From sequence record MK962753.1: a stretch of DNA of 64,000 bases; one strand, written 5' to 3'. Positions 18,070 through 32,405 of the stretch are shown here, one piece after another (positions within the stretch are counted from its first letter, which is position 1; each line of letters opens with the position of its first letter). Below the pieces are notes generated by a model, which ran no database searches, had not been told where the DNA came from, and saw only the letters and a list, made by a program, of their open reading frames with translations. Source of the stretch: Shigella phage JK32. A program made the position numbers and the translations under genes.

Positions 18070-18782
18070 AGATCCTTATTGGCTTCAAATACTGCCTTTG
18101 CGAATCCTCGCGGGGTAAGTGACCTGATAGTCTTTGTTCTGGTTCCTTTTCCGCCTAGCTTAGAATGCTGTTTGCTGTACCCTTTATTAATCGGCAACGG
18201 TTTCTTTTCTGGCATTATAAAGCCTTGTCCGGTCCATAAGCAAGTCTTTTTCGGGTACATATCACGGGAGGCAATATACTCAGGAAACGTAGGATGTATA
18301 TCATCTTCCGGCAAATAACCGCCATATTCCCACGGATGGAACATGTAATCAGGCTTACGCCACATACTAGAGATAACGCTTACAGGATTCTCTATCATGT
18401 AGGGAACTCCTAGCCATTCACCCAAATAAGCGGTTATTTTAGCTGCCCGTACATCATGAACTTGAATCAATGGTCCTTGCTCTCGTTTCTTTCGTTCAAA
18501 GTGTGCAGCGCCACTAACAGCTAAATTGGTGCACGGTGGGAATGCAAATATAATATCCGGTTTCCCCCATTCAAGGTCCATTGCTCTTTCCAGCCAGTTC
18601 AAATCAATCCATGTGTTTACATAGGTAATGTTTGGATGTTCAAATCGGGTATTATACTTTTTGTATGTGCCGTGGTCGCCATCGTCAGCATTAAAGCAGA
18701 TCACCTTATGACCTGCTTTAGCCCATTCTAGCCCCATTATCCCCGATCCGTCAAAGTTGCAGAATATTAATTTTTGTTTCAC
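18066..18782 (-). CDS. truncated C5-cytosine methyltransferase-like protein (SAM-dependent MTase core, no obvious target-recognition domain)
   Basis: 238 aa; motif I-like FDGSG, motif IV-like FPPCTNLAVSG, motif VI-like ENP in canonical order; GTG start overlapping upstream stop (GTGA). Confidence 0.55.
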   Translation of the reverse strand: MKQKLIFCNFDGSGIMGLEWAKAGHKVICFNADDGDHGTYKKYNTRFEHPNITYVNTWIDLNWLERAMDLEWGKPDIIFAFPPCTNLAVSGAAHFERKKREQGPLIQVHDVRAAKITAYLGEWLGVPYMIENPVSVISSMWRKPDYMFHPWEYGGYLPEDDIHPTFPEYIASRDMYPKKTCLWTGQGFIMPEKKPLPINKGYSKQHSKLGGKGTRTKTIRSLTPRGFAKAVFEANKDL

Positions 18783-19030
18783 GCTGCCCCCATTGGTTTG
18801 ATAGTAACAGAATCTAAAAGACCTTTGTTAGCCAGTTCGCGGCAAGTTTTCAGATCCGTAACTTCCCAGCCAGCCGCAATCAGGTTATCGATGAGGATGT
18901 TAGCAACTTCCTCGCTCATGAAAGAGCACTGTTTGCCGATGGTGTAGCGTACACGCTGTAATTTCAGTTTACGGAAGCCTTTAACGTTCAGGTCTTTAGC
19001 GATTTTCTTTGCGGTTTCGATGTTAGCCAT
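18779..19030 (-). CDS. hypothetical small protein (83 aa), first gene of operon
   Basis: SD GGAGAA; early promoter directly upstream. Confidence 0.6.
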   Translation of the reverse strand: MANIETAKKIAKDLNVKGFRKLKLQRVRYTIGKQCSFMSEEVANILIDNLIAAGWEVTDLKTCRELANKGLLDSVTIKPMGAA

Positions 19031-19070
19031 TGTTTGATTCTCCTAAGTAGTATCTCGTCTTGATGTGTGT

Positions 19071-19098
19071 AGTATAGGGGATCTCCCGATCCCCGTCA
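19071..19098 (-). promoter_or_regulatory. early promoter with palindromic spacer
   Basis: TTGACG, spacer GGGGATCGGGAGATCCCC-type palindrome, TATACT. Confidence 0.65.
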
Positions 19099-19114
19099 AC
19101 AACTTTTTTTAAAA

Positions 19115-19396
19115 TTATTCGTGATTAGTTTCGATGTTGTACATTTTGCACCAGTTCAGCCAATCGCCCAGATCTTGATAGTTGATGCTTTTATCTGCTG
19201 CCATCGTTTTTGTCTTGATACCCATATGTGCGTTATGAGTAAGCATTTTTACAGTGAACTCAATTTTATCGCCTTTAGCTTTAACATCAACCAGTTTGGT
19301 CCACTGGCTACCAGCGCCGCGAATGTTCATACCAACGATGTTTCCGATGTATGCTTCTTTGTTTTTCAGGATTTCGGTTGCTTTGATGAATTTCAT
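19115..19396 (-). CDS. hypothetical small protein (93 aa)
   Basis: ORF with SD GGAGAG; early promoter upstream. Confidence 0.6.
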   Translation of the reverse strand: MKFIKATEILKNKEAYIGNIVGMNIRGAGSQWTKLVDVKAKGDKIEFTVKMLTHNAHMGIKTKTMAADKSINYQDLGDWLNWCKMYNIETNHE

Positions 19397-19429
19397 TTTT
19401 GACTCTCCAGTTCGTTTCGGTATGGGTGT

Positions 19430-19458
19430 ATTATGCTATGTTCTTACTTTGGTGTCAA
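19430..19458 (-). promoter_or_regulatory. early promoter
   Basis: TTGACA, 17 nt, CATAAT; inverted repeat flanks -10; conserved ACACCCATCGAAACGA downstream. Confidence 0.65.
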
Positions 19459-19466
19459 CAACTTTT

Positions 19467-19736
19467 TTAGATATTTTCAGAAATAAATTTTAAAACTTGA
19501 CGTAAATGCTTCTCATCTTTGATAGTCGCCGGAAGTTCTTCTTTTACTTCCTGTGCAAGATAGATATTGCCGTTCCAAGTGAAAGATCCGTCTTCGTTTA
19601 CGCGATAGCTGAACATCCATTCGCAATCATTTTCGATTTCATATACACACAGAAGGGTGTAATCTTCAAAGCTATTGATTTCAAGGTCGAGGCCGTGACG
19701 TTTTGCAAAGTTGGTAGTGGTTTTAGTCAATGCCAT
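19467..19736 (-). CDS. hypothetical small protein (89 aa)
   Basis: ORF with SD AGGAGAA. Confidence 0.6.
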   Translation of the reverse strand: MALTKTTTNFAKRHGLDLEINSFEDYTLLCVYEIENDCEWMFSYRVNEDGSFTWNGNIYLAQEVKEELPATIKDEKHLRQVLKFISENI

Positions 19737-19776
19737 TGTTTGATTCTCCTAAGTAGTATCTCGTTTCGATGGGTGT

Positions 19777-19805
19777 ATTATGATATAGGCGTGATCTGGT
19801 GTCAA
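19777..19805 (-). promoter_or_regulatory. early promoter
   Basis: TTGACA, 17 nt, CATAAT. Confidence 0.65.
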
Positions 19806-19828
19806 CAACTTTTTTAAAATTTAGGCAA

Positions 19829-19852
19829 TAAAAAGCCGACACTAAGGTCGGC
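19829..19852 (-). terminator. rho-independent terminator
   Basis: GCCGACCTTAGTGTCGGC hairpin plus U-run on minus strand. Confidence 0.65.
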
Positions 19853-19857
19853 ACATT

Positions 19858-20112
19858 TTAAAAATTCTTGCTATATATGCAAGCCTCATAATCTAGAGGA
19901 TGACCGCCAATCCTACCAGGCTTAATATTCCAACCGCATCGATATTTGCTGACCATGCTAACCGTTTCGGTTCTTAGAGCATTTCTTTGCAAATCATACC
20001 CCCTAAATTCTTGTCTATAAGGACAGTCCGCTTTGCAAGTTGGCGGTTCTACGTCATTTAGCGGGTCAGAAGCAGTTGGCTTTATTATCAATTCTTTGTT
20101 TGCAATAATCAT
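19858..20112 (-). CDS. hypothetical Cys-rich ORF overlapping 3' end of upstream gene
   Basis: Open frame between 59-aa gene and terminator; start uncertain (ATG at 20112 or 20142); no clear SD. Confidence 0.35.
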   Translation of the reverse strand: MIIANKELIIKPTASDPLNDVEPPTCKADCPYRQEFRGYDLQRNALRTETVSMVSKYRCGWNIKPGRIGGHPLDYEACIYSKNF

Positions 20113-20245
20113 AAGCACATCCCATTGAAGGCAATTTAACATCTTCGCAATAAGTGTTGAATCCGTCAAATACAATCACTTCGTATTTGACTCCATCGGC
20201 GATAGCTTTTACTTTATACCATCCATGCTTGTATAAAATCTTCAT
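20066..20245 (-). CDS. hypothetical small Cys-rich protein (59 aa)
   Basis: ATG at 20245 with SD GAGGGAAAT; track start is TTG. Confidence 0.5.
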   Translation of the reverse strand: MKILYKHGWYKVKAIADGVKYEVIVFDGFNTYCEDVKLPSMGCAYDYCKQRIDNKANCF

Positions 20246-20276
20246 CTTTATTTCCCTCAATCTCGTTTCGATGGGT

Positions 20277-20305
20277 GTATTATGCTATACACAGGATCTA
20301 GTGTC
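20277..20305 (-). promoter_or_regulatory. early promoter
   Basis: TTGACA, 17 nt, CATAAT. Confidence 0.65.
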
Positions 20306-20329
20306 AACAACTTTTTAAAATTTTATGCA

Positions 20330-20353
20330 ATAAAAAAGCCGACACTAAGGTCG
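20330..20353 (-). terminator. rho-independent terminator
   Basis: Same hairpin as 19829..19852 followed by U6 on minus. Confidence 0.65.
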
Positions 20354-20363
20354 GCTAATAAAA

Positions 20364-20669
20364 TCATTTAGACAAATAATCATTCTGTGCAATCCGGTCG
20401 GCATGTTCCGGCGTTACGTCAATTGCAATCACTTTAACGCGCGCTTTCTTGACTGAATTTTCTCGTAGCCAGTGCGTGTGACCGTGCACATTTTTATATT
20501 TTGATGCGGTTTCGAAGGTACGGATCGGACCTGGGTAATCAGCGTAAAGGATCTCTAGGTCATCGGTGATGTAAAAATATACGTTGTAATTACTGTTCTC
20601 TAGCTTAAGCAGAGACTTTCGGAACATTGGGAGATTTTCGCGGGTAAATTCAAAGATATTATCTTTCAT
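20364..20669 (-). CDS. HxHW-family small protein, paralog A
   Basis: 101 aa; motifs YFYITDDL ... HGHTHW ... VIAIDV..ADR shared with five neighbouring ORFs. Confidence 0.65.
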   Translation of the reverse strand: MKDNIFEFTRENLPMFRKSLLKLENSNYNVYFYITDDLEILYADYPGPIRTFETASKYKNVHGHTHWLRENSVKKARVKVIAIDVTPEHADRIAQNDYLSK

Positions 20670-20692
20670 AGTATTATCCTCAATAGTTGGAT

Positions 20693-20713
20693 GAAAAGGG
20701 GGCTTAACGCCCC
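20693..20713 (-). terminator. hairpin terminator (likely partial)
   Basis: GGGGGCGTTAAGCCCCC followed by TTTTC on minus. Confidence 0.45.
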
Positions 20714-20719
20714 CATATA

Positions 20720-21007
20720 TTAAAACAGTCCTTCCTGTACACCGTAGTAGAGTTCGTCGCTGATAATTTCATTAATGCGACGGTGTGCATATTCCTGATT
20801 TGCGAAGTTGTCAGCAAGTTCTACTTTAGTTTCGCCGTCATGAGTCCATTTAGTGATAACTTTACCGTCTGCAAATTTGAAGTTGAACTCTTTAGCTACT
20901 GCATCGCGTACCAGACGTGCAAACTTATTGTTGCGGATTGCATTATCGGTTTCGTGTGCAGCGTGAGCAAATTTGTTAACTTTCAGCGTGATAGTGATGT
21001 ATGCCAT
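20720..21007 (-). CDS. hypothetical small protein (95 aa)
   Basis: SD GGAGAA; early promoter upstream. Confidence 0.6.
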   Translation of the reverse strand: MAYITITLKVNKFAHAAHETDNAIRNNKFARLVRDAVAKEFNFKFADGKVITKWTHDGETKVELADNFANQEYAHRRINEIISDELYYGVQEGLF

Positions 21008-21053
21008 AATTTGATTCTCCTAGTTAGAAAGTGTATCTCGTTTCGATGGGTGT

Positions 21054-21082
21054 ATTATGCAATACACCCGATCTTATGTCAA
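21054..21082 (-). promoter_or_regulatory. early promoter
   Basis: TTGACA, 17 nt, CATAAT; upstream gene stop abuts the -35. Confidence 0.65.
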
Positions 21083-21088
21083 CACTTT

Positions 21089-21367
21089 TTATAAAATAAT
21101 TTTTTGATATTTTTCTATGATGTTCGTGTAATCCACATCAACCGCTATCACCGTTGCTTCGAATCCACCGTTTAGCCAATGGCTATGGTCATGATCGTGA
21201 AAGAAACCAAGACCAGTACGAAGACCTTCTTTATATTCGGCGCGTACATTTAGATCATCATCGATAAACAGATAAAACCATGAATTTTTACTAGGATTGA
21301 TGATACAACCTTTCAGATTAGGGAGAATATCACGACTAAGAATAAACTTATCACCTACTTTGAACAT
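21089..21367 (-). CDS. HxHW-family small protein, paralog B
   Basis: ATG at 21367 with SD GTGAGGA; motifs WFYLFIDDDL ... HDHSHW ... VIAVDV. Confidence 0.65.
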   Translation of the reverse strand: MFKVGDKFILSRDILPNLKGCIINPSKNSWFYLFIDDDLNVRAEYKEGLRTGLGFFHDHDHSHWLNGGFEATVIAVDVDYTNIIEKYQKIIL

Positions 21368-21371
21368 AATA

Positions 21372-21692
21372 TTAGTCCTCACTTATAAGGTCAAACCAAT
21401 TGTTTTTCGCATAATGCTTAATGCGTGCTTGATCTGCTTCCGCTGGTGATAGATTCCATGCAACCACTACAACTTCTGACGCATCGTCATCCGTTTCTGA
21501 TACCCAATGATTATGATTCATACAATTGTTTGCTATCGCGTGAGCAAATGATTTCATCACTGGAGACGTATAATCATAGTAACGGATTTTCAGATTTTCA
21601 TCAACGTACAAATAGATCGTATAAGGTTTATATTCAGTAACCAGTAACAGACAGTTACGCAATTCTGGGAAAATATTTTTAGTTAATTTCAT
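21372..21692 (-). CDS. HxHW-family small protein, paralog C
   Basis: 106 aa; YLYVDENL ... HNHW ... VVVAWNL..AEADQ; SD GGAGAA. Confidence 0.65.
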   Translation of the reverse strand: MKLTKNIFPELRNCLLLVTEYKPYTIYLYVDENLKIRYYDYTSPVMKSFAHAIANNCMNHNHWVSETDDDASEVVVVAWNLSPAEADQARIKHYAKNNWFDLISED

Positions 21693-21894
21693 ATTCTAGT
21701 TCTCCGTAATACACGGTAATCCATTTTTCTTCATACTTTGTATCTTTCCAACACACAATCCCGTTTACTGTGCAATCTTTGGAATTGACGAATGATTCAT
21801 ATTGTTCTGCATCTTCCATCATTGCATGAGCGGTCTTTTCATCGAATATATCGCAGATCGCTTTATATGCTCGATAATCTTTAAATTTGCTCAT
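21679..21894 (-). CDS. hypothetical small protein (71 aa), tandem duplicate 1 (MSKFKDY family)
   Basis: N-terminus MSKFKDYRAY, paralogous to adjacent 21897..22106; ATG at 21894. Confidence 0.55.
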   Translation of the reverse strand: MSKFKDYRAYKAICDIFDEKTAHAMMEDAEQYESFVNSKDCTVNGIVCWKDTKYEEKWITVYYGELEYEIN

Positions 21895-21896
21895 AA

Positions 21897-22106
21897 TTAA
21901 GACCACTCAAGAGTTTTTGAAAACACATCTATCCATTGTTGAGTATATGCGGTTTCTTTCCATGATACAATACCAGTCGAATAATGGTTTTTGTTTCCAG
22001 AAAAGGACGGGCATTTTGAGGCATCTTCCATCATCTTTTCGGCGAACTCTGGTTCGTATACTCGCAAGATCTGTTGATATGCTTTATAATCTTTAAATTT
22101 GCTCAT
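21897..22106 (-). CDS. hypothetical small protein (69 aa), tandem duplicate 2 (MSKFKDY family)
   Basis: N-terminus MSKFKDYKAY; SD AAGGTAG. Confidence 0.55.
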   Translation of the reverse strand: MSKFKDYKAYQQILRVYEPEFAEKMMEDASKCPSFSGNKNHYSTGIVSWKETAYTQQWIDVFSKTLEWS

Positions 22107-22371
22107 AATTGTTAACTACCTTATCAGCTTCTTTTATTGTTTTTACATCAACTGCGATAATCCGTAAAGGTTCGTCGAAGGTCCACCAATGATCGTGAAT
22201 ATCGGCTTGTGATTTATCACCAAAGGAATCACGAATATCATTTTTACATTTATAGCTAATGTGACCTTCATAGTCAACATAAAGGTAATTATCGAAAATC
22301 GGCGTTTTTAAGATCATACCGAAAAATCTTTCTTTGTGTGTCTTATCCAGTGTTGCAGTAATTCTCATCAT
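22093..22371 (-). CDS. HxHW-family small protein, paralog D
   Basis: 92 aa; YLYVDYEG ... HDHWW ... IIAVDV..EADK; SD AAGAGGAA. Confidence 0.65.
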   Translation of the reverse strand: MMRITATLDKTHKERFFGMILKTPIFDNYLYVDYEGHISYKCKNDIRDSFGDKSQADIHDHWWTFDEPLRIIAVDVKTIKEADKVVNNYEQI

Positions 22372-22383
22372 AATATATTCCTC

Positions 22384-22563
22384 TTAGAAAGGGATGGTCA
22401 TTTCTTGAGCTTGTACATTCTCGTTAGGATTAAACTTCATCCAACCGATATTGTCTACCAGCATATGCACATTTTTATCATATCCTACGTGAGTAGTCAA
22501 TACTGTATGTGCTTTACCTTCAACGATGATTTCCATGTACTTCTGAACTTCGATAGCTTTCAT
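22384..22563 (-). CDS. hypothetical small protein (59 aa, below track cutoff)
   Basis: Hand-translated ORF starting MKAIEVQKYMEI; SD GGAGAATC; early promoter upstream. Confidence 0.45.
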   Translation of the reverse strand: MKAIEVQKYMEIIVEGKAHTVLTTHVGYDKNVHMLVDNIGWMKFNPNENVQAQEMTIPF

Positions 22564-22595
22564 TTTGATTCTCCGTTTGTTGTCTTGATGGGAGT

Positions 22596-22624
22596 ATCTT
22601 ACTACTCCCTTTAATCATTGTCAA
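22596..22624 (-). promoter_or_regulatory. early promoter with inverted repeat around -10
   Basis: TTGACA, 17 nt, TAAGAT; GGGAGTA ... TACTCCC inverted repeat flanks the -10. Confidence 0.6.
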
Positions 22625-22627
22625 CGA

Positions 22628-22795
22628 TTATTTGTTAATTTCCGGTGCGTTGCTTGGATAGTAACCTTCTTTAACACCCAGATATTTTGCAACCATTCCG
22701 GTGATCTTCTGTGCTACTACGATATCGAATTTCAGGTAGTCTTCACCGTGGTTTGCTACAATGTATGCTTCGCATTCTGCTTTAGTCTGGAACAT
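22628..22795 (-). CDS. hypothetical small protein (55 aa)
   Basis: ATG at 22795 with SD AGGAGAATC; track ORF starts further upstream. Confidence 0.5.
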   Translation of the reverse strand: MFQTKAECEAYIVANHGEDYLKFDIVVAQKITGMVAKYLGVKEGYYPSNAPEINK

Positions 22796-22829
22796 TTTTG
22801 ATTCTCCTATATCTCGTTGGTATGTGTGC

Positions 22830-22859
22830 ATTATAGGGGATCGGTGACCCCCCTGTCAA
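22830..22859 (-). promoter_or_regulatory. early promoter with palindromic spacer
   Basis: TTGACA, spacer GGGGGGTCACCGATCCCC, TATAAT. Confidence 0.65.
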
Positions 22860-22866
22860 CAACTTT

Positions 22867-23169
22867 TTATTCTTCGTCTTTATCTTTATATGCGTATTTC
22901 ATAAATTTGTCTGCCACTTCGTCCGCGTTTTCAGGTTCTACGTCTGACGCTAGGACAACAGCTAGTTCGGTTTTGTCGTTTCCATCATACCAATGATTAT
23001 GAGTGTCGTTTTCTTCGATATAAAACGAATCATTTGGAGATGGGCGACAATATACGTCTAAATTCCCATCGATATAAAAGATCCAATCCGAATACAAAAT
23101 GATTGTTTTAGCCAGATTTTTATTGTCTCTTACAAAAGGTTCCGCGACAAATAGCTTAGTTTGTTCCAT
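22867..23169 (-). CDS. HxHW-family small protein, paralog E
   Basis: ATG at 23169 with SD GAGGAGA; IFYIDGNL ... HNHW ... AVVLASDV..ENADE. Confidence 0.6.
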   Translation of the reverse strand: MEQTKLFVAEPFVRDNKNLAKTIILYSDWIFYIDGNLDVYCRPSPNDSFYIEENDTHNHWYDGNDKTELAVVLASDVEPENADEVADKFMKYAYKDKDEE

Positions 23170-23185
23170 AGTAATCTCCTCAAAA

Positions 23186-23377
23186 TTATACAACTTCGTA
23201 AACTTCCCAATGTCCAACACCGGAACGCTTAACGAAAAGGTTTTCTTTGATGTTATTCATAAACGTCTGGATGGATTTAATGCGGTTGGAAGGTTTCCAG
23301 TCTTCGTTGGCATTGCGGCGATACATAATAACATTACCAGTTCTCTTATATTCAGCAACCATTTTAAGACCACACAT
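23186..23377 (-). CDS. hypothetical small protein (63 aa)
   Basis: SD GAGGA. Confidence 0.5.
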   Translation of the reverse strand: MCGLKMVAEYKRTGNVIMYRRNANEDWKPSNRIKSIQTFMNNIKENLFVKRSGVGHWEVYEVV

Positions 23378-23434
23378 AATATTATCCTCAATTTATGGGA
23401 GAGTATTACCCCTCCCAATGATTGTTATATTACA

Positions 23435-23755
23435 TCACATAAAATGGCGTTTCAATGCTTCTTTTGCGGTTCCGCTAAGACTTTCGATCTCGCCTGGCAT
23501 AACATCAACTGCCAGAACTTCTACAACATCCTCTGACCCCAACCAGTGAGTATGACCTTTGTAGAACTTGATAACCAGACTACCTTCCTCATCCCATTTA
23601 ACGCTATCGCTAGCCCACCACACATCACCGTCGATAAAGTTGATGTAAAGCACACTACGCCACATTGAATTAATTACTTTCAATACTGCGCCTTTCATAT
23701 CTTCCACGGTGTGGTCTTCCATTTTGAAGACCTCGCCTACCTGAACTTTTGCCAT
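23435..23755 (-). CDS. HxHW-family small protein, paralog F
   Basis: 106 aa; YINFIDGDV ... HTHW ... VLAVDV; SD GAGAGGTGA. Confidence 0.65.
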   Translation of the reverse strand: MAKVQVGEVFKMEDHTVEDMKGAVLKVINSMWRSVLYINFIDGDVWWASDSVKWDEEGSLVIKFYKGHTHWLGSEDVVEVLAVDVMPGEIESLSGTAKEALKRHFM

Positions 23756-23772
23756 TTAGTCACCTCTCTTTA

Positions 23773-23952
23773 TTACATAACAATCACGCCAGCCGTTGAA
23801 AGTTGATGTTTCAACTGAGCATTTTCTGCTACTGTCAAATCAATGATTTCTTGTGACGCTGCAATCATATAACCATTGGTGATATTGTTTTGCATCAGTT
23901 CAATGGTTTCTTCGTTGTAGCGGATTTTAGCGATGATTTCGTTGAAGTTCAT
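23773..23952 (-). CDS. hypothetical small protein (59 aa, below track cutoff)
   Basis: Hand-translated ORF starting MNFNEIIAKIRY; SD AGGAGAATC; promoter upstream. Confidence 0.45.
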   Translation of the reverse strand: MNFNEIIAKIRYNEETIELMQNNITNGYMIAASQEIIDLTVAENAQLKHQLSTAGVIVM

Positions 23953-23986
23953 GTTTGATTCTCCTAGTTCGTTTCGGTATGTGTGT

Positions 23987-24015
23987 AGTATAGGGGATCA
24001 CCGATCCCCTGTCAA
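23987..24015 (-). promoter_or_regulatory. early promoter with palindromic spacer
   Basis: TTGACA, spacer GGGGATCGGTGATCCCC, TATACT. Confidence 0.65.
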
Positions 24016-24028
24016 CAACTTTTTTGAA

Positions 24029-24505
24029 TTATTTTTCTTGATGCTCGCGCTCGTACTTTTCGAAATAAAATTCTACTGGCTGGTCGTGGATTGACAGTAA
24101 GCCAAAGCGTTTAGCCGCTCGCAACCCCATATTGCGCTGAATGTACTTCTGGAAGTTCTCGCGTATACACTTACGCCAGTATTCTAAGCCCATACAGCTT
24201 TTATAAAGATTGCATTGCACACACGCCGGATTCATGTTATCAAGTATATCATGCTCCGGTTTATGCATTCCTACAACCTTATACTTCCACGATCCATCAT
24301 CATTACGGGCAATTCGTCCATTTTCATCATAGACTACTTTTGAGCGTCGTAATACTGGTTTGATGTGGTCTGCGTGCCAGCGATCCCCTAGTTCCTCGCC
24401 ACAATAGGCACAACGTCCACCATATTTCATTTTCAGGATCTGGCGTTGCTCTTTCTTTGACAATTTTTTAGGTTTAGGGGCTTTCGCCCCTTCATTATCA
24501 CACAT
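24029..24505 (-). CDS. HNH endonuclease
   Basis: 158 aa; CxxC ... HADH ... N ... CxxC HNH-type motifs; start overlaps ligase stop (ATGTGTGA). Confidence 0.75.
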   Translation of the reverse strand: MCDNEGAKAPKPKKLSKKEQRQILKMKYGGRCAYCGEELGDRWHADHIKPVLRRSKVVYDENGRIARNDDGSWKYKVVGMHKPEHDILDNMNPACVQCNLYKSCMGLEYWRKCIRENFQKYIQRNMGLRAAKRFGLLSIHDQPVEFYFEKYEREHQEK

Positions 24506-26000
24506 CGAATACCTCTTTTACTGTATTTGCAGTGGTCTTGTCGTAGCGAATACGTTTGATGATCGGGAGAAATAAAGAGAACTCCGGTTCATCTTCTTTA
24601 CGTGATTTGCTGCGGATATACCCGTTGCATGTCATCTCAATGACTTTTCCAATCAGGTTATGACGGTCAGCCCATAACATTTCTCGGTCAAGTTCATTTC
24701 GACGATCGAACGGAATTACACGTTCGATACCATCATCACCTTTTTCGGTTGTAGTGTCGGTTAATCCCGATCCGGTGTTAGTCATCATTCGTCCACACGC
24801 ACTACGGACAGTAAAACCGCCTACCTTATTGGGGTCTTTACTATGCGGATATACATCAACAATTTCCGCGTCGAAGTCAATCACTTCTTTAAATTTAACC
24901 TGATCTTTACTACGGCGATCTTCAAATACACCATGCAGATTTTTAAGGATAATACCTTCTAAGCCCATGTTTACATAGCGATGATATACTTCGCGAGCTT
25001 CATCGATATTGTTAACTACAGTATTTTCGATTATCTGAACACGAGGATCGTTAAGTTCTTCAACAATCTGTTTTAGTTCTTCGAATCGATCTTTATATTG
25101 CTTCGTTGCTTTCTCGTTTCCGTAATACACATCACGGTCGATAACATCCCAGACAGTGTAAACAATACATTGGGCTTCTTCTTTTGGAATAGTTCCTTTC
25201 AGTGATTTGTTGAGGATACCATTTCCGGTCTGACGATCTGCAACAACGGATTCTTTCACTGCTTCCGCTACTGGCGTTAATGGCATTTCCTCTTCTTCAA
25301 ATATCCATGACAGAGTACCATCATAAACGCTCTCAACGAAGTTCTGCGCTGGTGTTTGCGAAAGGGTAGGCATATATACCAATTCGCCATCTAGAACAAT
25401 TCCACGGCCTCGTAGACGCTCTAAAACCGCAAACAAATCATCAAGCCCCTGATAGGTATTACCTGAACGGGTATAGATTGCTAATGTTTCCCCGTCAATA
25501 TCAGCCATACCACGAGCGCCATCGCTTTTAAGTTGTGCATATGCAGGATATTTGATATTAGCAATGGCCTTATCAGAATATGACGATGCAAGGTGGCACG
25601 GCTGCTGGGGGATCAGTTTCTTCCATACCTTGTTTGCAGTGGTAGCGGAACAACCGCATTCCAGATCACGATTCAGGACCATCATTGCAACTTTAGCATC
25701 ATCTTCTGACAAGCAAGTCAGAGTATCGGTAACTAGCTGTAATGCTGCATTACCAGTTACTTGACGCGTGGCAAGTTTATTTTTAAAGACCTGTAATGCA
25801 CCGGATAAAGACAATACAGACGAATAACGCGATGGTTTATCGTATTTCTTTACGCCAAACGTAACCTGTTTGCAATATGCCAGATAAAAGCATTCTTTCA
25901 GCGTTTCATTGCTTGCAGATTCTTTCAGAATCTTTTCTTTCAGCGATGTTTTGTCTGTTGCTGCAAGCTGATTAATGATATTAAGAATTGACATTTTCAC
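24498..26000 (-). CDS. 30: ATP-dependent DNA ligase gp30
   Basis: 500 aa (T4 487 aa); adenylation motif KSDGAR; position after alt region as in T4. Confidence 0.9.
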   Translation of the reverse strand: MKMSILNIINQLAATDKTSLKEKILKESASNETLKECFYLAYCKQVTFGVKKYDKPSRYSSVLSLSGALQVFKNKLATRQVTGNAALQLVTDTLTCLSEDDAKVAMMVLNRDLECGCSATTANKVWKKLIPQQPCHLASSYSDKAIANIKYPAYAQLKSDGARGMADIDGETLAIYTRSGNTYQGLDDLFAVLERLRGRGIVLDGELVYMPTLSQTPAQNFVESVYDGTLSWIFEEEEMPLTPVAEAVKESVVADRQTGNGILNKSLKGTIPKEEAQCIVYTVWDVIDRDVYYGNEKATKQYKDRFEELKQIVEELNDPRVQIIENTVVNNIDEAREVYHRYVNMGLEGIILKNLHGVFEDRRSKDQVKFKEVIDFDAEIVDVYPHSKDPNKVGGFTVRSACGRMMTNTGSGLTDTTTEKGDDGIERVIPFDRRNELDREMLWADRHNLIGKVIEMTCNGYIRSKSRKEDEPEFSLFLPIIKRIRYDKTTANTVKEVFDV

Positions 26001-26460
26001 CTCGTTTTGTTAAACGTTCACGAATATCATTGAGGATACTACAAAATTCCGATTCGGTCAATATGGTCTTTAACGGATCTGATCCACCTATGCTATGACG
26101 TAATTTCTTATTTCCGGTAGCGAGTAATGCTTTACAAAATTCTGGGTTATTCCGTGCCATCGTAACAAATGCCAGATGTACCAGTCTGTAATAATGCTCA
26201 CTCATTCGATGAATCTGGCGACCCTGAAAATATAACATGTGATTCTCAACCTTTTCAGTCCTTCCGGTTCTTTTTGCTTTGCCACCGTGCATCAAAAAGA
26301 TTTCTCTTTGTCTCTGAGGGTTCTTAAATCTTAGACCCTGTAAAAATCCTTCTGTGCTGTTAATATCGCAACCAAATAGACGGAATGGTCTTTTATTGAA
26401 GTTGCTCAATTCACCCGATGGATAAGGTCCACCCGCATAGATATCAATTTCAGAAGTCAT
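25981..26460 (-). CDS. NADAR-domain (YbiA/DUF1768-like) protein, putative ADP-ribose-processing enzyme
   Basis: 159 aa; N-terminal GGPYPSGELSNF ... FRLFG ... STEGFLQGLRF resembles NADAR signature; 3' end overlaps ligase start by 20 nt. Confidence 0.65.
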   Translation of the reverse strand: MTSEIDIYAGGPYPSGELSNFNKRPFRLFGCDINSTEGFLQGLRFKNPQRQREIFLMHGGKAKRTGRTEKVENHMLYFQGRQIHRMSEHYYRLVHLAFVTMARNNPEFCKALLATGNKKLRHSIGGSDPLKTILTESEFCSILNDIRERLTKRGENVNS

Positions 26461-26614
26461 TGAAACTAATCTCGCTAATCAGAGAGAACGGATCATAATC
26501 GTCATTAGGAATATCGATAGTAATCGAGTGAGGATTTACCCATACACCAAACTGGTCTTCTTCGGTGAATACTTCGGTATGGATTTCGTGGATGTTTACA
26601 TTCATAGTTTTCAT
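26450..26614 (-). CDS. hypothetical small protein (54 aa, below track cutoff)
   Basis: Hand-translated ORF starting MKTMNVNIHEIH; SD AAGGAA; 3' end overlaps NADAR start. Confidence 0.35.
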   Translation of the reverse strand: MKTMNVNIHEIHTEVFTEEDQFGVWVNPHSITIDIPNDDYDPFSLISEISFNDF

Positions 26615-26656
26615 AATAAAATTCCTTAATAATCAATAACTTACAAAATCATATAG

Positions 26657-26685
26657 CCAAAATATAGGCGGGATTATTTCCCGCC
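26657..26685 (-). terminator. rho-independent terminator after gene 31
   Basis: GGCGGGAAATAATCCCGCC hairpin then T-rich run on minus. Confidence 0.55.
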
Positions 26686-26695
26686 GTTTAAATCA

Positions 26696-27019
26696 TTAAC
26701 CGTAAACTACCACAATATTCTGTTTGTGTGTTACAGTCCATTTCAGGTCGATCTCTTCTTCCTTCTTAACGCCGTTAATAACGTCTGGATGAGGAACTTT
26801 ATTAAGTTTCCCATGAGGAAGCAATACAGTCTTGCCCAGCAATTCTTTATCTACAGTTTCACCAATATCAATAATCTTACCTACCAGCGGAATCTCGCCC
26901 ATAGTGCGCTTTTGCTCAATAATGATCCCCATAGAGCTTTTTACTTCGGTCCCTGCGCTTTCTGCTTTAGCTTCGATAATTACATAATCACCAAGTGCTT
27001 TAGGAGTTTTAACGGTCAT
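26696..27019 (-). CDS. 31: co-chaperonin gp31 (GroES analogue)
   Basis: 107 aa; resembles remembered T4 gp31 including NKVPHP motif. Confidence 0.8.
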   Translation of the reverse strand: MTVKTPKALGDYVIIEAKAESAGTEVKSSMGIIIEQKRTMGEIPLVGKIIDIGETVDKELLGKTVLLPHGKLNKVPHPDVINGVKKEEEIDLKWTVTHKQNIVVVYG

Positions 27020-27060
27020 AATTTTATTACCTCTTCAAATCAATACAGTTTAATGATGAA

Positions 27061-27381
27061 TTATTTATAAATTTCGACGATCTGCGCTGGAGTCAGCCCG
27101 TCTACATTAATCAGACTATCAAGCCCAAAACTACGGAAACCTTCAACTGCAATTTCATATACTGGCAAAGATGTTTCTGATTCTTTACGCGGTTTTTCAA
27201 CATTCGGAACTAACCACTTTTCGTATGTTTCAAACGGCATCAGTGCCGGATCTCTCGTAGCGATCATCTCGCGGACAGTACCATCTTTCTTAGTAAACTG
27301 CAAAGAGTGAGTACCGACCGAAAACATTTTCTTTAGTGCTTCACGAAGTGCGATATTATCAATTTGTTCGGTCATTATCAA
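27061..27381 (-). CDS. hypothetical protein (106 aa)
   Basis: ORF between cd and 31. Confidence 0.55.
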   Translation of the reverse strand: MIMTEQIDNIALREALKKMFSVGTHSLQFTKKDGTVREMIATRDPALMPFETYEKWLVPNVEKPRKESETSLPVYEIAVEGFRSFGLDSLINVDGLTPAQIVEIYK

Positions 27382-27874
27382 TACCCTTCAAATCAGTCAA
27401 TAATGCTTTTGGAATACGCGTGATCGTAATATCTGCATTATTAAGAATATCAGCCCAATCACGCCCACCATTTCGATCATATGTGTCGCAATAGTATAGA
27501 TGTTTAATTCCACTGTTTGCAATTGCTTTAGCGCAATCTGGACACGGTGAAGCAGTACACCACATACTAGCACCTTCAATCGATACACCGCTACGGGCAG
27601 CAAACAAAATAGCATTTAATTCAGCATGGATCTCGTTTTTCTGTGACCATGCACTATGTTCTGGTCGTTTTTCTGGGATCATTTTGCCGTCATCATCCAG
27701 CCAACCGCTTTTATGTGCATGACAGCTACAATTTACTTGCCCTGCTGGAGTGCCGTTAAATCCAGTAGAAATGATTCGCCCGTCTTTTTCAATTAGTGCG
27801 CCTACCTTCCACGAAACGCATTTAGAGTTCTTTGCGATTAGATAGGCGATCTGCATGTAAGTTTGTGACAACAT
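27359..27874 (-). CDS. cd: dCMP deaminase
   Basis: 171 aa; zinc-binding deaminase motifs HAELNAI and PCPDCAK. Confidence 0.9.
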   Translation of the reverse strand: MLSQTYMQIAYLIAKNSKCVSWKVGALIEKDGRIISTGFNGTPAGQVNCSCHAHKSGWLDDDGKMIPEKRPEHSAWSQKNEIHAELNAILFAARSGVSIEGASMWCTASPCPDCAKAIANSGIKHLYYCDTYDRNGGRDWADILNNADITITRIPKALLTDLKGIDNDRTN

Positions 27875-27895
27875 AATATAATCCTCACATATTAA

Positions 27896-28099
27896 TTAAC
27901 CGTATACGCGAAAGTATTCTACTGATCCGTCGCTATACTGTTTTACATTGAATGTATTCACACCATGATCATTGCTCATAATGACATATACACTACGACG
28001 CTCATCACCAAACGGGTTAACTGGTGCGGGTTCAATTTCAACATTAAAACCACGTTTAGCAAGTGCTTCGCCTAATTGCTTGAGTTTATCGGTAAACAT
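27896..28099 (-). CDS. hypothetical small protein (67 aa)
   Basis: ORF abutting pseT stop. Confidence 0.5.
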   Translation of the reverse strand: MFTDKLKQLGEALAKRGFNVEIEPAPVNPFGDERRSVYVIMSNDHGVNTFNVKQYSDGSVEYFRVYG

Positions 28100-28998
28100 T
28101 AAAAGTCTCCGTAGTTAACCTGAAAACATTCTACACCAATTGATCGGTACATGTCAACCACTTGATCACGGTCATCTACTGCCAACACAACATGATAACG
28201 CGGTGCAATTTCAGAGAAGAAAATCTCTTTCTTCACTTCATGATCAGGACGACGATCATTAGTTTCACGTTGAAAGTGATCACTAGGTTCGATACCTTGT
28301 TCACGCAACCATTGCAGCGTATCTTCCTCGCAAACATCCTCACGTCCTGAGCACGTAATGATACGATAGCCATTATCACGATACAGTTTAAGCATTTCGA
28401 TCACTTGCGGACGCGGTTTATCTTCTTTGACCTTTGTCCAGTCAAACGGATGACGACCGCCCTTATCCGCTAATGTTCCATCAATATCAAAGATCACTGC
28501 CTTCGGCAGCATGGTATTCGGTTTGTATACTTCTTGACCCATATATTCCTGCATCAGATAAAATTGGTTACGCAAATGAGAAAGTGGAATTGCTTTCTCG
28601 CCGCGATAGAAATTACGTTTCTTTAGTGTCTCAAATGATTCATTGAACACCTGTTCAGTATACACCGCGTTAAATTCTTTTGCAAGTTCTTTGTAGAATA
28701 CACGATGTTTTTCTTTCAGGTTAGTATCAGAGACAATGATACTCAATCCGCGTGATAGAGTCTCACGAGCAATCATTCTCTGAATAGACTCTACCAGCTT
28801 TTCTTTTTCCTTAGTATACTTGTATTTCAAAAGTGAGTCAACACCAAACAACATAAGACGAAGATCATCGCGATTCACATTACGATAATTACTAAACCGT
28901 TTACATGTTTCCATAGCCCATGTAGTTTTACCAGACCCAGAACAACCAACGGTTAAAATCACTTCACATTTCGGCATTATTTCTCCTTCGGTTTGCAC
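28099..28998 (-). CDS. pseT: polynucleotide 5'-kinase / 3'-phosphatase
   Basis: 299 aa; P-loop GCSGSGKT at N-terminus and HAD-type DIDGT phosphatase motif; matches T4 PseT architecture. Confidence 0.9.
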   Translation of the reverse strand: MQTEGEIMPKCEVILTVGCSGSGKTTWAMETCKRFSNYRNVNRDDLRLMLFGVDSLLKYKYTKEKEKLVESIQRMIARETLSRGLSIIVSDTNLKEKHRVFYKELAKEFNAVYTEQVFNESFETLKKRNFYRGEKAIPLSHLRNQFYLMQEYMGQEVYKPNTMLPKAVIFDIDGTLADKGGRHPFDWTKVKEDKPRPQVIEMLKLYRDNGYRIITCSGREDVCEEDTLQWLREQGIEPSDHFQRETNDRRPDHEVKKEIFFSEIAPRYHVVLAVDDRDQVVDMYRSIGVECFQVNYGDF

Positions 28999-29429
28999 CG
29001 TTCCTCATTAAGTTCTTTGCGATAATAACACATGATCAACTTACTTTCAAGTGTATATCTCTTGATATCCGCAAGCCAGACTCTGAATTTTTGGGAGTCC
29101 TCCCACGACATAGAAACTCTAGGTTTACCGTCTATTGTATCCACTTTCAGGTCAATGTCAACTTTTTCTATTGGTGCTGGTAGTGGAGGATGTAATTTCG
29201 GTTCCTGTGAATAATGGTCCATTGTACACGAAGAAAGAGCAAATACAATAGGTACAGCGAAGACATGGATTATGGCGGTCTGAAAATTCTTATGTGCTTT
29301 CTTAAACATCCAGTGTATCACGAAAATTGAAAACACCATCAGGATAATAATGCTTGCACCTATCCCCAGATAATCAACCAGATTAAAATTGCTTATCTGC
29401 TCTTGCGTAGGCAATATTTCTATGCTCAT
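28977..29429 (-). CDS. hypothetical membrane protein (two predicted TM segments)
   Basis: 150 aa with hydrophobic stretches; ATGA coupling to upstream gene. Confidence 0.55.
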   Translation of the reverse strand: MSIEILPTQEQISNFNLVDYLGIGASIIILMVFSIFVIHWMFKKAHKNFQTAIIHVFAVPIVFALSSCTMDHYSQEPKLHPPLPAPIEKVDIDLKVDTIDGKPRVSMSWEDSQKFRVWLADIKRYTLESKLIMCYYRKELNEERCKPKEK

Positions 29430-29749
29430 TTAGTAGCCTCCTTTAATTCTTCGGTAAACTCCTTAAATGAATCATTAAGCTGTTTCTCTACCAACTTGGG
29501 TTTTTGTGCTACTACATAGCCTCGTGTAGCGTCTTTCATTGCTTTGTTTTGTTCTTCGGCAAACTTAGTTCTTATTCCGTACATCTCCTTTTGTAGCGAG
29601 TCTACAATCTTCATCTTCTCATCTGTCTTTTTCTTATACTCTGTAAATTCCTGATTCAGTCGATCTACCTCCTTTTTATTTTCCCACCACATATTGCCAC
29701 CTATCCCCAACAACACAGATATGATAACAATGTATATCAGCTTTGACAT
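29426..29749 (-). CDS. hypothetical membrane-anchored coiled-coil protein
   Basis: ATG at 29749 (MSKLIYIVIISVLLGIGG, N-terminal TM) followed by Lys/Glu-rich helix. Confidence 0.55.
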   Translation of the reverse strand: MSKLIYIVIISVLLGIGGNMWWENKKEVDRLNQEFTEYKKKTDEKMKIVDSLQKEMYGIRTKFAEEQNKAMKDATRGYVVAQKPKLVEKQLNDSFKEFTEELKEATK

Positions 29750-29764
29750 ATTACCCCCAACGAC

Positions 29765-29789
29765 AAAAGGCGGGGAACTAGCCCCGCTT
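29765..29789 (-). terminator. rho-independent terminator
   Basis: GCGGGGCTAGTTCCCCGCC hairpin then TTTTG on minus. Confidence 0.55.
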
Positions 29790-29793
29790 ATTA

Positions 29794-30963
29794 TTACCAA
29801 TCAATCTTATCAGCCGGAATTAGTTTCTTATAATTCCGTAGATAGTAAGTTTTCATTGAAGCCAGAATACGGTCATAATCAAGACCATCAAATGCAATCA
29901 TCAGACACATGAAAATATATGCTTGTGCATCACCATGTTTACGTGATTCGATAGTCGCATTGGATGCATATGTCTTTCTGTCTTCTCCCGCGTGTGCGTT
30001 ATAAAATTCTGTTGCTGTCGTGAAGGCATTGCGAAGAATAGACCTGAATGCTTCCTCGAATAGCTCGATTCGTTCCAGTGCTTCCGGTTCGCCTTCATAT
30101 GCAGCACGCAAATCATCGGTTTCACTTTCTACGACATAGTAGATCAGGTTATTAGGAAACATCGATGTGTTTTTAATGTTATGCACACCAATATACCATT
30201 CACTCTTCACCTTGAACATTTGACCGTCTTTAGTGCGTGCAACAATTCCTTCGATACCTTCTGCGGTCCGAACTTCATCAAGAATATTGCTAAAACGCGC
30301 TGAATCAACCTGTAACGCATTTACCAGATGAGGACGTAGGATTGCATCAGCAAATAGCATTTGATGCGGTACATACTCTCCTGTGACGTTATGGCGTACA
30401 TTCAGAAGTGTTAGCGACGGTTCAGAATATTCTACAACAATTCGGTTGCTGGGTGCTGTATATTCAAAGTTGAAAGTATAATCAGACCCGATATCGGCGA
30501 TCTTAGCGCGTAGATCCGCATACTTCTCTGAATACAGAAGACCGTTTGCTCTCTCCGCTTGGCTTGAGTACAAGGCCGCTTTAGACTTCAACTGAACATA
30601 GCCGTTATCAATGTATGTGCTTACTAGACTACCGTCCATTTTGTCCATGACCATTTCCACATCTTCCGGCTTAAAGCGAGAGCGTTCATTCTCACCTAAA
30701 TTAAAAAACTTCTCCATAGGACGAGATGCAATGCGGACAGGTCGGTCTTTATCATCGATTTCAAACATGATCCCGCGACACTCTAACGCATCTGGTTTAT
30801 TCCACATTTCCGGTTTGCTCAAGTACAAATAACTAAAAATGCGCATACGGGTTTGCATCGCCGTAATTTCATCTTTGTAATAGAACGTATCAGATCCGTC
30901 ACATAGTGTCATCAGATTTTTGAACAATGCTAAAACTTTTTTGTTGTTTTCTTTTGTTGACAT
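29794..30963 (-). CDS. rnlA: RNA ligase 1
   Basis: 389 aa; ligase motif KMDGSL and LECRGIMFE block as in T4 RnlA. Confidence 0.85.
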   Translation of the reverse strand: MSTKENNKKVLALFKNLMTLCDGSDTFYYKDEITAMQTRMRIFSYLYLSKPEMWNKPDALECRGIMFEIDDKDRPVRIASRPMEKFFNLGENERSRFKPEDVEMVMDKMDGSLVSTYIDNGYVQLKSKAALYSSQAERANGLLYSEKYADLRAKIADIGSDYTFNFEYTAPSNRIVVEYSEPSLTLLNVRHNVTGEYVPHQMLFADAILRPHLVNALQVDSARFSNILDEVRTAEGIEGIVARTKDGQMFKVKSEWYIGVHNIKNTSMFPNNLIYYVVESETDDLRAAYEGEPEALERIELFEEAFRSILRNAFTTATEFYNAHAGEDRKTYASNATIESRKHGDAQAYIFMCLMIAFDGLDYDRILASMKTYYLRNYKKLIPADKIDW

Positions 30964-31360
30964 AATTTGTGTTCCATTCTGGTTTAAATTTGGTGATCAA
31001 AACAGGTTCTTCGATATCGGCAGTGCTTATAATATCTTTACCCGTTGGATTCTCTATGTACAACTCAAAGCACTGGCGGTAATAGAATGTTACTGTCTTC
31101 CCTTCCTCTAGCGCCTTATGAATATTCTTACTCTTGCGAGTATCCGCCGTTGGTGTCTGTCTGTTAATGCTAGTCCGGTAATAGTTGATCCGCTTTCTGA
31201 GATTAACAGTCTGACCAATGTATACCAGTTCATCATCAACCGCAATAGCGTAAAGAACATTTAAACGGTTCTTCTGAGGCGGTAGAATCACATCACCATC
31301 TTTACACTCTAAACATGAATATTTAACGAATCCATAGTTTTCTATTAGCTCATTAATCAT
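30899..31360 (-). CDS. denA: endonuclease II (GIY-YIG family)
   Basis: Strong match to remembered T4 DenA (NVLYAIAVDDELVYIGQTVNLRKRINYYRT); SD GAGGAAAGGA. Confidence 0.85.
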   Translation of the reverse strand: MINELIENYGFVKYSCLECKDGDVILPPQKNRLNVLYAIAVDDELVYIGQTVNLRKRINYYRTSINRQTPTADTRKSKNIHKALEEGKTVTFYYRQCFELYIENPTGKDIISTADIEEPVLITKFKPEWNTNYVNKRKQQKSFSIVQKSDDTM

Positions 31361-31380
31361 TATCCTTTCCTCACGTCACA

Positions 31381-31403
31381 ACAAAGGCGGGATTTCTCCC
31401 GCC
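31381..31403 (-). terminator. rho-independent terminator
   Basis: GGCGGGAGAAATCCCGCC hairpin then TTTGTTG on minus. Confidence 0.55.
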
Positions 31404-31410
31404 CACCTTA

Positions 31411-31809
31411 TTAACTTTCCAGAATATCGCGAGCTTCGTTACGCTCCTTGATGATTTTCAGGACAAATTCCAGTTTTTCTTTGTTCAGTGTTCCGTTTTC
31501 CATTGCTTCTTTGACGGTAAGCACTCCGCCACCTTGCCCGTATACAGTGACAGTGATTTCACCTAACATCGTGGTATGAAAACCGCCAATTTTCGGTGAT
31601 TCGAAAGAAACAATCACCTCACGGATAGTATTGCCATCGTTGATTTCTTCCAGCGTAATATCGCTTTTGTAAGCGGTTGCTTTAACCATACGGATCAGCA
31701 TAGTCTGATCTGGGGAGATGGTCATTTTGTCCATTGCATGTTGCAATGCAGCGTAACCGAAAACTTTAACGAAGTCCAGAACGTCTTTGCGAGTTTGAAA
31801 TTTAATCAT
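31411..31809 (-). CDS. hypothetical protein (132 aa)
   Basis: SD AAGGAG; early promoter upstream. Confidence 0.6.
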   Translation of the reverse strand: MIKFQTRKDVLDFVKVFGYAALQHAMDKMTISPDQTMLIRMVKATAYKSDITLEEINDGNTIREVIVSFESPKIGGFHTTMLGEITVTVYGQGGGVLTVKEAMENGTLNKEKLEFVLKIIKERNEARDILES

Positions 31810-31850
31810 CTTGATACTCCTTAGTAAGTTAGTTTCGTTTCGATGGGGGT

Positions 31851-31879
31851 ATATTACTACCCCCGTTTCAGGCTGTCAA
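31851..31879 (-). promoter_or_regulatory. early promoter with inverted repeat around -10
   Basis: TTGACA, 17 nt, TAATAT; GGGGGTA ... TACCCCC inverted repeat. Confidence 0.6.
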
Positions 31880-32101
31880 CTACTTTTTAATGACAAGTTC
31901 GAATTTTGCTACCTTACGTCCTCGTTTATTGAAAGCAACCCACGGACGGTTTTCAATGTAGAACAATTCTTCACCAATAATGAATACTGGCTGATTGTAA
32001 AGGCGACCCATCAGGTCACGCTGGCGAATGGTAGTAGATTCGTATACTTCGCCTACTACAAAGTGTTTGCTGATAGAGTCGGTGCAGATAAATTTCATTT
32101 T
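31880..32101 (-). CDS. hypothetical small protein (73 aa), MK-x2-C family
   Basis: ATG at 32101 with SD GGAGAATC; paralogous to 34471..34638 and 59493..59699. Confidence 0.55.
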   Translation of the reverse strand, partial: KMKFICTDSISKHFVVGEVYESTTIRQRDLMGRLYNQPVFIIGEELFYIENRPWVAFNKRGRKVAKFELVIKK

Positions 32102-32126
32102 GATTCTCCTTTGTTTCGATGGGGGT

Positions 32127-32155
32127 ATATTACTACCCCCGCTATTCAGTGTCAA
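32127..32155 (-). promoter_or_regulatory. early promoter with inverted repeat around -10
   Basis: TTGACA, 17 nt, TAATAT; near-duplicate of promoter at 31851..31879. Confidence 0.6.
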
Positions 32156-32162
32156 CTACTTT

Positions 32163-32381
32163 TTACTTGTTGTATTCATTCCACCATTGGGTTAGCTTAT
32201 CAATTATTTTTGTGTTTCTATCCAACTTCTCCCACCGTTTTCGAGGGTTTATCAACCGGAATAGGTAAGGTGTACTTGTTAAGTGAACTCGGTCAATGTA
32301 GTGATTGATGTACTGCTTTTCAATTCTAAGTTTCATCTTTTTACGATGAAAATATGCAATGACTTGTTCTTCTGTTTCCAT
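32163..32381 (-). CDS. hypothetical small basic protein (72 aa)
   Basis: SD GGAGGA. Confidence 0.55.
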   Translation of the reverse strand: METEEQVIAYFHRKKMKLRIEKQYINHYIDRVHLTSTPYLFRLINPRKRWEKLDRNTKIIDKLTQWWNEYNK

Positions 32382-32405
32382 ATGTTCCTCCGTTTCGATG
32401 TGCGT

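Follow-up and report, generated by a model that had tools for sequence, protein, structure and literature searches.

The window analysed here, 64,000 nucleotides from Shigella phage JK32 (MK962753.1), carries on its minus strand a 159-residue open reading frame (ORF; 25981–26460) that begins with ATG, ends with TAA and is predicted to be the adfN (gene 30.3) ortholog, encoding a putative phage-type NADAR-fold ADP-ribosylglycohydrolase. Its downstream neighbour on the same strand is gene 30 (24498–25994), a T4-type ATP-dependent DNA ligase by its Pfam match (PF01068, E = 4.2e-22) and by the DNA ligase annotation of near-identical phages; an HNH ORF (24029–24505; PF01844) lies beyond it. On the other side, a minus-strand 54-residue ORF of unassigned function (26450–26614), labelled a hypothetical protein in phage JSE and without a Pfam match, immediately precedes 30.3. 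Upstream of both, just past gene 31, a GC-rich hairpin followed by a T run occupies positions 26667–26685 of the minus strand, and a 299-residue ORF further away (28099–28998) is annotated as PseT in JSE.

30.3 overlaps both of its minus-strand neighbours. The first-pass annotation had given a 20-nucleotide overlap between 30.3 and the ligase gene; an overlap exists, but that length holds only for the mechanically assigned GTG start at 26000. An ATG at 25994, two codons past the GTG, is preceded at the right distance by a GAGGT Shine–Dalgarno sequence located within 30.3 (26003–25999, minus strand), presumably fits the T4 ligase N-terminus, and is equivalent to the ligase start annotated in JSE. 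For these reasons, the true overlap is most likely the 14 nucleotides at 25981–25994 on the minus strand, the length also found in the JSE annotation. At the other end of 30.3, the last 11 nucleotides of the 54-residue ORF overlap the start-codon region, which makes translational coupling between the two likely. Judged by this spacing, the 54-residue ORF, 30.3 and the ligase gene apparently form a single compact unit whose translation is coupled. No consensus promoter was matched between the gene 31 hairpin and 30.3, and scanning the window for tRNAs and Rfam families gave no hits.

Across bases 24000–29000, the window is 97–98% identical at the nucleotide level to about 59 Krischvirus Escherichia phages, including RB49, JSE, MIZ, kaaroe and kvi; like them, the window phage is a T4-type Krischvirus. 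JSE is classified in the Straboviridae, with Krischvirus standing outside the subfamily Tevenvirinae; in RB49-type phages, cytosine is unmodified. The JSE counterpart of the ORF is labelled ‘gp30.3 conserved hypothetical protein’, and the local order reads denA, rnlA, pseT.3, pseT.2, pseT, cd.2, cd, 31.1, 31, a small ORF, 30.3, ligase and an HNH-type ORF. The 30.3 reading frame is intact and full-length in 59/59 close relatives. Comparison with the JSE ortholog yielded seven synonymous and two single-base non-synonymous differences, corresponding to a pN/pS of about 0.08 when one two-base Ser-to-Thr codon is excluded, a ratio that points to strong purifying selection.

The window ORF occupies the same gene 31-to-gene 30 interval as T4 gp30.3. 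Of T4 genes 30.1 to 30.9, rIII and 31.1, the window has homologs of just two, 30.3 and 31.1; searches of the window for 30.1, 30.2 and 30.4–30.9 returned none. Adjacency to the ligase gene is likewise variable: in T4, both 30.1 and 30.2 separate 30.3 from ligase, in Acinetobacter phage AM101 it is 30.2 that intervenes, the KVP40 homolog sits beside genes 47 and 46, and the homolog of Brevundimonas phage Gurke lies amid unrelated small ORFs. A functional coupling of 30.3 to ligase was considered and rejected, as the adjacency is kept in none of these four phages. We read it as a by-product of gene loss, that of 30.1 and 30.2, within a syntenic early region. The earlier suggestion that placement with ligase, an HNH nuclease and pseT marks a role in DNA repair or counter-defence is therefore borne out as far as the neighbours go, but the functional hint is weak, since homologs elsewhere stand in other contexts. 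Retention of 30.3 despite the loss of its neighbours speaks for a selective value of the gene. With regard to the other anti-DarT factors of T4, no homolog of AdfA (gp61.2, encoded in T4 in the primase–helicase interval) was detected in the window or in 71 kb of JSE, which took in the primase–helicase interval but not 60–103 kb; JSE does possess a homolog of Tk.4/AdfM, the T4 macrodomain anti-DarTG2 factor, at 44% identity.

The identity of the protein was decided by its match to the phage family profile, together with fold and orthology, and not by a match to the Pfam NADAR family. Against Pfam Phage_30_3 (PF08010), it scored 130.3 bits (E = 5.6e-38, cut-off 36 bits) over profile positions 2–138 of 138, and PHROG 652 was matched at E = 4.7e-45; the ORF, which the first-pass annotation had called at the same coordinates, is thus confirmed far beyond chance. 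BLASTP aligned it to T4 gp30.3 at 38% identity over residues 3–150, up to the last T4 residue. A NADAR profile match, the check proposed earlier, turned out borderline: Pfam NADAR (PF08719) was hit at 16.9 bits (E = 0.008), under the gathering score of 35.1 bits. The same profile recognizes only 21 of the 83 gp30.3 family members at E ≤ 0.01, with a best E value of 1.1e-6. A sub-threshold match was also obtained to the NCBIfam NADAR anti-phage model (14.6 bits versus 240). The PADLOC models for DarG and DarTG matched neither the window protein nor T4 AdfN; the library is thus unable to classify the gp30.3 family. We place the protein, by predicted fold and by motifs, in the NADAR superfamily and outside the Pfam NADAR family as that family is delimited.

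The gp30.3 family is large. A tblastn search matched 1509 phage records, 1501 of them nearly full-length, in phages of Escherichia, Klebsiella, Acinetobacter, Aeromonas, Vibrio and rhizobia, and 987 cluster representatives were recovered at E ≤ 1e-3 from genomes and metagenomes clustered at 50%. Domains fused to gp30.3 in the long metagenomic relatives were mostly without annotation.

Profile searches of PDB sequences gave a faint signal, and a clear NADAR answer needed fold comparison: the first such search returned a weak YbiA match only, and a profile built from the 83-sequence family alignment reached E = 2.2e-4 for YbiA and 0.23 for 8bau. An AlphaFold2 model built from a 12-sequence alignment was confident (mean pLDDT 93.9, pTM 0.89), and comparison of this predicted structure retrieved NADAR proteins and nothing else, which places the protein in the NADAR superfamily (YbiA fold). 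The best structural match of the model is E. coli YbiA (2b3w), and its fold neighbours are the same three PDB structures as those published for T4 AdfN (PMC11825919). Sequence identity to DarG1-type NADARs is about 11–14%. In the model, the first strand spans residues 4–6, that is, the protein begins at the core domain; at the other end, a C-terminal helix comprising residues 136–157 (25990–26055, minus strand) is predicted to be intact, in keeping with an alignment to T4 gp30.3 that runs to the last T4 residue.

The NADAR/YbiA-like N-terminal motifs noted in the first-pass annotation were found again here, with LSNF (residues 18–21) and the motif E37-GFLQ aligning with YbiA and the Phytophthora NADAR. 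The catalytic glutamate that opens helix 1 (E36 in T4) is present as E37 (codon GAA, 26350–26352, minus strand), which by alignment corresponds to PnNADAR E43 and to E88 of the E. coli C7 NADAR; the residue never varies across the 83-sequence alignment, and 160/167 family rows have Glu here. Seven residues on, a spacing kept in all alignments, the phosphate-binding lysine (T4 K43, PnNADAR K50, C7 NADAR K95) is replaced by R44 (codon AGA, 26329–26331, minus strand). The third position, the last-strand histidine that marks gp30.3-type phage NADARs, is H122 (codon CAT, 26095–26097, minus strand), which directly follows model strand 119–121 and is conserved in 158/167 family rows. The profile alignments extend up to the Leu/Tyr just before the H122 position, where H122 would be in register with YbiA’s own Glu. 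The window sequence KLRH puts H122 at the position of PnNADAR E125 (PMC11543638); a histidine here is the hallmark of phage NADARs, where YbiA has Glu and DarG1 has Asp (PMC11125620, PMC11543638). The window protein keeps every column listed as invariant or nearly so for the 83-sequence alignment.

R44 is a natural, conservative Lys-to-Arg change and the sole departure among the catalytic residues. Within the family, the Glu+7 position holds Lys in 151/167 rows and Arg in 10/167 (about 6%). The arginine is common to the 97%-identical representative of a 167-sequence Krischvirus cluster (P0001) and to a 69%-identical metagenomic relative (P0002), and beyond the window clade, Arg forms that retain both the Glu and the His occur in several unrelated, mutually distant lineages. 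Conservation under purifying selection and recurrence in distant lineages argue, at the level of sequence, that a gp30.3-clade protein can function with Arg at this position.

For the T4 ortholog, a function as an anti-DarTG1 DNA de-ADP-ribosylase was published in 2024–2025. In 2025, Johannesman et al. (PMC11825919) mapped T4 gene 30.3 with chimeric phages and renamed it adfN (anti-DarT factor NADAR). The same study reported that adfN is needed in T4 and T2 for plating on DarTG1 hosts, that adfN supplied in trans is sufficient for RB69 to plate on them, and that purified T4 AdfN strips ADP-ribose from DarT1-modified DNA. The substitutions E36A and K43A and a C-terminal truncation mimicking RB69 all impaired T4 AdfN, with K43A giving only partial rescue; RB69 gp30.3 itself is without the C-terminal helix, a loss that correlates with DarTG1 sensitivity (PMC11825919). 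T4 AdfN was ineffective against the thymine-modifying DarTG2 and left DarT1 toxic in uninfected cells, and non-T-even phages were helped by it only weakly, on which ground a T-even helper was proposed (PMC11825919). Hydrolysis of guanine-linked ADP-ribose by T4 gp30.3 in vitro was described by the Ahel laboratory (PMC11125620), the T4 enzyme being specific for guanine (PMC11825919, PMC11125620), and a transposon screen independently found 30.3/adfN to be conditionally essential with DarTG1 (10.1101/2025.11.20.689424). [quoted passage not shown] The published AdfN/DarTG1 phage tests comprise T2, T4, T6, RB69 and Bas35–47 only (PMC11825919), and a literature search combining Krischvirus with DarTG found nothing.

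Taken together, the ORF is almost certainly an AdfN (gp30.3) ortholog with a NADAR fold. Because T4 gp30.3 is an experimentally proven enzyme, orthology to it also assigns a probable function: we put at roughly 80% the probability that the window protein removes guanine-linked ADP-ribose from DNA and protects against DarTG1. The earlier proposal of a NADAR-type remover of guanine-linked ADP-ribose that counters DarT is in this way supported by analogy, through 38% identity, the same Pfam family and the same genomic interval, and it is from T4 AdfN that we infer the enzymatic activity, the guanine specificity and the anti-DarTG1 phenotype. In the mechanism we propose, 30.3 would be expressed from an early/middle transcription unit shared with the DNA ligase gene, its timing suggested by synteny with T4. 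The protein would bind ADP-ribose placed by a host DarT1-type toxin on guanine of single-stranded phage DNA; E37 and H122 would contact or position the distal ribose, and R44 would take the place of Lys in coordinating the diphosphate. Hydrolysis of the ribose–guanine N-glycosidic bond would then free ADP-ribose and leave the DNA intact, such that replication could go on in DarTG1-carrying hosts.

Several observations weigh against this assignment. Identity to the experimentally tested T4 protein is just 38%. The phosphate-binding lysine is an arginine, to be compared with the loss of in vivo rescue in C7 K95R (PMC11543638) and the partial rescue by T4 K43A. T4 AdfN is fully effective only in T-even infection, which implies a helper, and the window phage falls outside the Tevenvirinae and has, in the window, no homologs of T4 30.1, 30.2 and 30.4–30.9. 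The direct Pfam NADAR match is sub-threshold, and the PADLOC DarG models are unmatched.

The arginine, the position of the phage outside the Tevenvirinae, the absence of 30.1 and 30.2, and the lack of an AdfA homolog in the regions searched led us to consider, as an unlikely variant of the same reading, that the Krischvirus enzyme is a functionally shifted AdfN, either helper-independent or tuned to another DarT1 variant or to another ADP-ribosylated substrate such as RNA. If so, its comparison with T4 AdfN could reveal determinants of NADAR specificity and of helper dependence.

Quite unlikely, in our estimate, is a protein that reverses ADP-ribosylation from another source altogether, be it some other host ADP-ribosyltransferase (ART) directed at guanine or RNA, or collateral nucleic-acid modification by the phage’s own ARTs. 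The window does encode two ART-domain proteins on the same strand, one of them Alt-like (14812–16863) and the other at 13900–14733, and modB is present in JSE; Alt and Mod enzymes, however, modify protein arginines, with ModB acting also on RNA ends. The arginine at position 44 and membership of a different clade could accompany a shifted substrate. T4-like NADARs have been described as early genes found together with ARTs (PMC9503650), and the T4 authors themselves suggest that other ADP-ribosylated targets might be processed (PMC11825919), yet the NADARs tested so far cleave guanine-linked ADP-ribose only (PMC11125620, PMC11543638).

A preference for small molecules over DNA we regard as very improbable. 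It would make the protein either a YbiA-like N-glycosidase of intermediates in the riboflavin pathway or an enzyme hydrolysing soluble immune signals derived from ADP-ribose; YbiA is indeed the closest structural match, described in work cited by PMC11125620 as an N-glycosidase of riboflavin intermediates, and a comparative-genomics survey has suggested that phage NADARs may prefer low-molecular-weight ADP-ribose derivatives (PMC9503650). Against this, the window protein has His at the last-strand position and not the YbiA-defining Glu (PMC11125620), and the T4 ortholog acts on ADP-ribosylated DNA with a clean DarTG1 phenotype (PMC11825919; 10.1101/2025.11.20.689424). Detoxification of riboflavin intermediates in the manner of YbiA is not expected of the window protein.

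Least probable of all is that arginine has weakened the enzyme until it no longer protects, leaving Krischviruses with a remnant of the gene that is decaying or has been re-purposed: although rescue of cells from DarT1 toxicity is lost in C7 NADAR K95R (PMC11543638) and RB69 exemplifies a T4-type phage with a defective allele (PMC11825919), K95R is still catalytically active in vitro (PMC11543638), and decay is at odds with the low pN/pS, with a reading frame kept full-length in every close relative and nearly so in almost all phage matches, and with an arginine that persists in a 69%-identical relative and comes up independently elsewhere with the Glu and the His in place.

With removal of guanine-linked ADP-ribose from DNA and protection against DarTG1 as the preferred reading, annotation as a putative “AdfN-like NADAR, anti-DarTG1” now becomes possible, where most of the matching phage records listed still read ‘hypothetical protein’. 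The discovery value is small, as near-identical genomes such as JSE carry the gp30.3 label and the family has already been placed as a phage branch of the NADAR superfamily. The naturally occurring arginine of this non-Tevenvirinae phage nevertheless offers a ready comparison for in vivo NADAR efficiency and for the helper dependence of AdfN.

Among characterized systems, the window protein stands closest to T4 AdfN. The two belong to the same Pfam family and share full-length similarity, a similar size, the absence of an N-terminal extension, a predicted NADAR fold with the same three PDB neighbours (PMC11825919), the catalytic Glu, the phage-type His, the C-terminal helix and the gene 31-to-30 position on the early-gene strand. 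They differ in that T4 AdfN has K43 where the window protein has R44, and in that the window protein extends seven residues further at its C-terminus. At the level of the genome, the window 30.3 abuts the ligase gene, from which T4 30.3 is separated by 30.1 and 30.2; T4 possesses an internal, out-of-frame 30.3’ ORF, of which the window holds no same-strand counterpart of at least 40 residues; and T4, unlike the window phage, is a member of the Tevenvirinae.

The resemblance to cellular NADARs is more distant. DarG1, the DarT1-associated NADAR antitoxin of the BC4488 family, represented by the E. coli C7 NADAR and the G. lovleyi NADAR (8bat), has a last-strand catalytic Asp and an N-terminal extension, and its gene adjoins darT1. 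The window protein has His at that position, begins without an extension and matches no PADLOC model, and its gene is an orphan between the 54-residue ORF and ligase, with no adjacent darT; it is not a DarG1. Nor does it belong to the YbiA family, whose last-strand Glu is replaced by H122 and whose Pfam NADAR profile it matches below threshold. [quoted passage not shown]

Besides the NADAR gene, the ortholog of T4 30.3, the window contains two ORFs in which PF03496, an ADP-ribosyltransferase domain, was identified: an Alt-like 683-aa ORF (14812..16863, minus strand; E=2.3e-9) and a 277-aa ORF (13900..14733, minus strand; E=5.2e-16). Both are encoded on the same strand as the NADAR gene, 9–12 kb downstream from it; taken together, the three genes describe a phage that possesses predicted writers and a predicted eraser of ADP-ribosylation alike. 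A 184-aa ORF (17217..17771, minus strand) matches PF03235 (E=6e-20), the DUF262/ParB-like domain that forms the N-terminal part of GmrSD type IV restriction enzymes; its presence as a short stand-alone phage protein is unusual.

Other anti-DarT factors were sought in the closely related Krischvirus JSE. JSE encodes, at 44% identity, a homolog of Tk.4 from T4, the macrodomain factor against DarTG2 that has recently received the name AdfM (JSE stretch L009, 1773..2228; JSE 51773..52228). No homolog of AdfA (T4 gp61.2) was found at the syntenic primase-helicase position of JSE (stretch L008, 12333..13897), where the genes are named dc1 and dc2.

Metagenomic relatives of gp30.3 display additional domain architectures. 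The gp30.3 domain is matched as two stretches in P0016, P0018, P0056, P0127 and P0134, with the catalytic Glu (E37 in the window protein) lost from one of the two stretches in P0056 (replaced by Ala) and P0127 (by Gln). Among the further metagenomic relatives, which include P0051 and P0062, some are fused either to leucine-rich repeats of the BspA type or to an alpha/beta-hydrolase of UPF0227, and several gp30.3-family proteins of 465–500 aa possess a long N-terminal region devoid of annotation.

Immediately 3' of gene 31, and upstream of the cluster comprising a small 54-aa ORF, 30.3 and the ligase gene, the sequence contains an intrinsic-terminator-like hairpin, GGCGGGAAATAATCCCGCC, followed by a T run (26667..26685, minus strand); no consensus promoter was found after it. 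Neither tRNA genes nor Rfam families at the gathering threshold were detected in the entire 64-kb window (1..64000). At the other end of the cluster, a 158-aa ORF with an HNH motif (24029..24505, minus strand; PF01844, E=5e-6) shares 8 nt with the ligase gene at the ligase stop. This HNH ORF is also present in JSE. JSE, GoldenSnicker and LF73P4 possess ~350 additional bases right downstream of it that are absent from the window, and in JSE these bases correspond to an additional 345-nt ORF.

Comparison of window positions 22000..31000 with T4 revealed no detectable homolog of T4 30.1, 30.2, 30.4–30.9 or rIII in the window. A Pfam search with T4 gp30.2 returned no match, and that gp30.2 might be the proposed helper of T4 AdfN (gp30.3) is pure speculation. 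In Acinetobacter phage AM101, 30.2 adjoins 30.3, as it does in T4. Of the T4 genes compared, only 30.3 and 31.1 are retained in this interval of the window.
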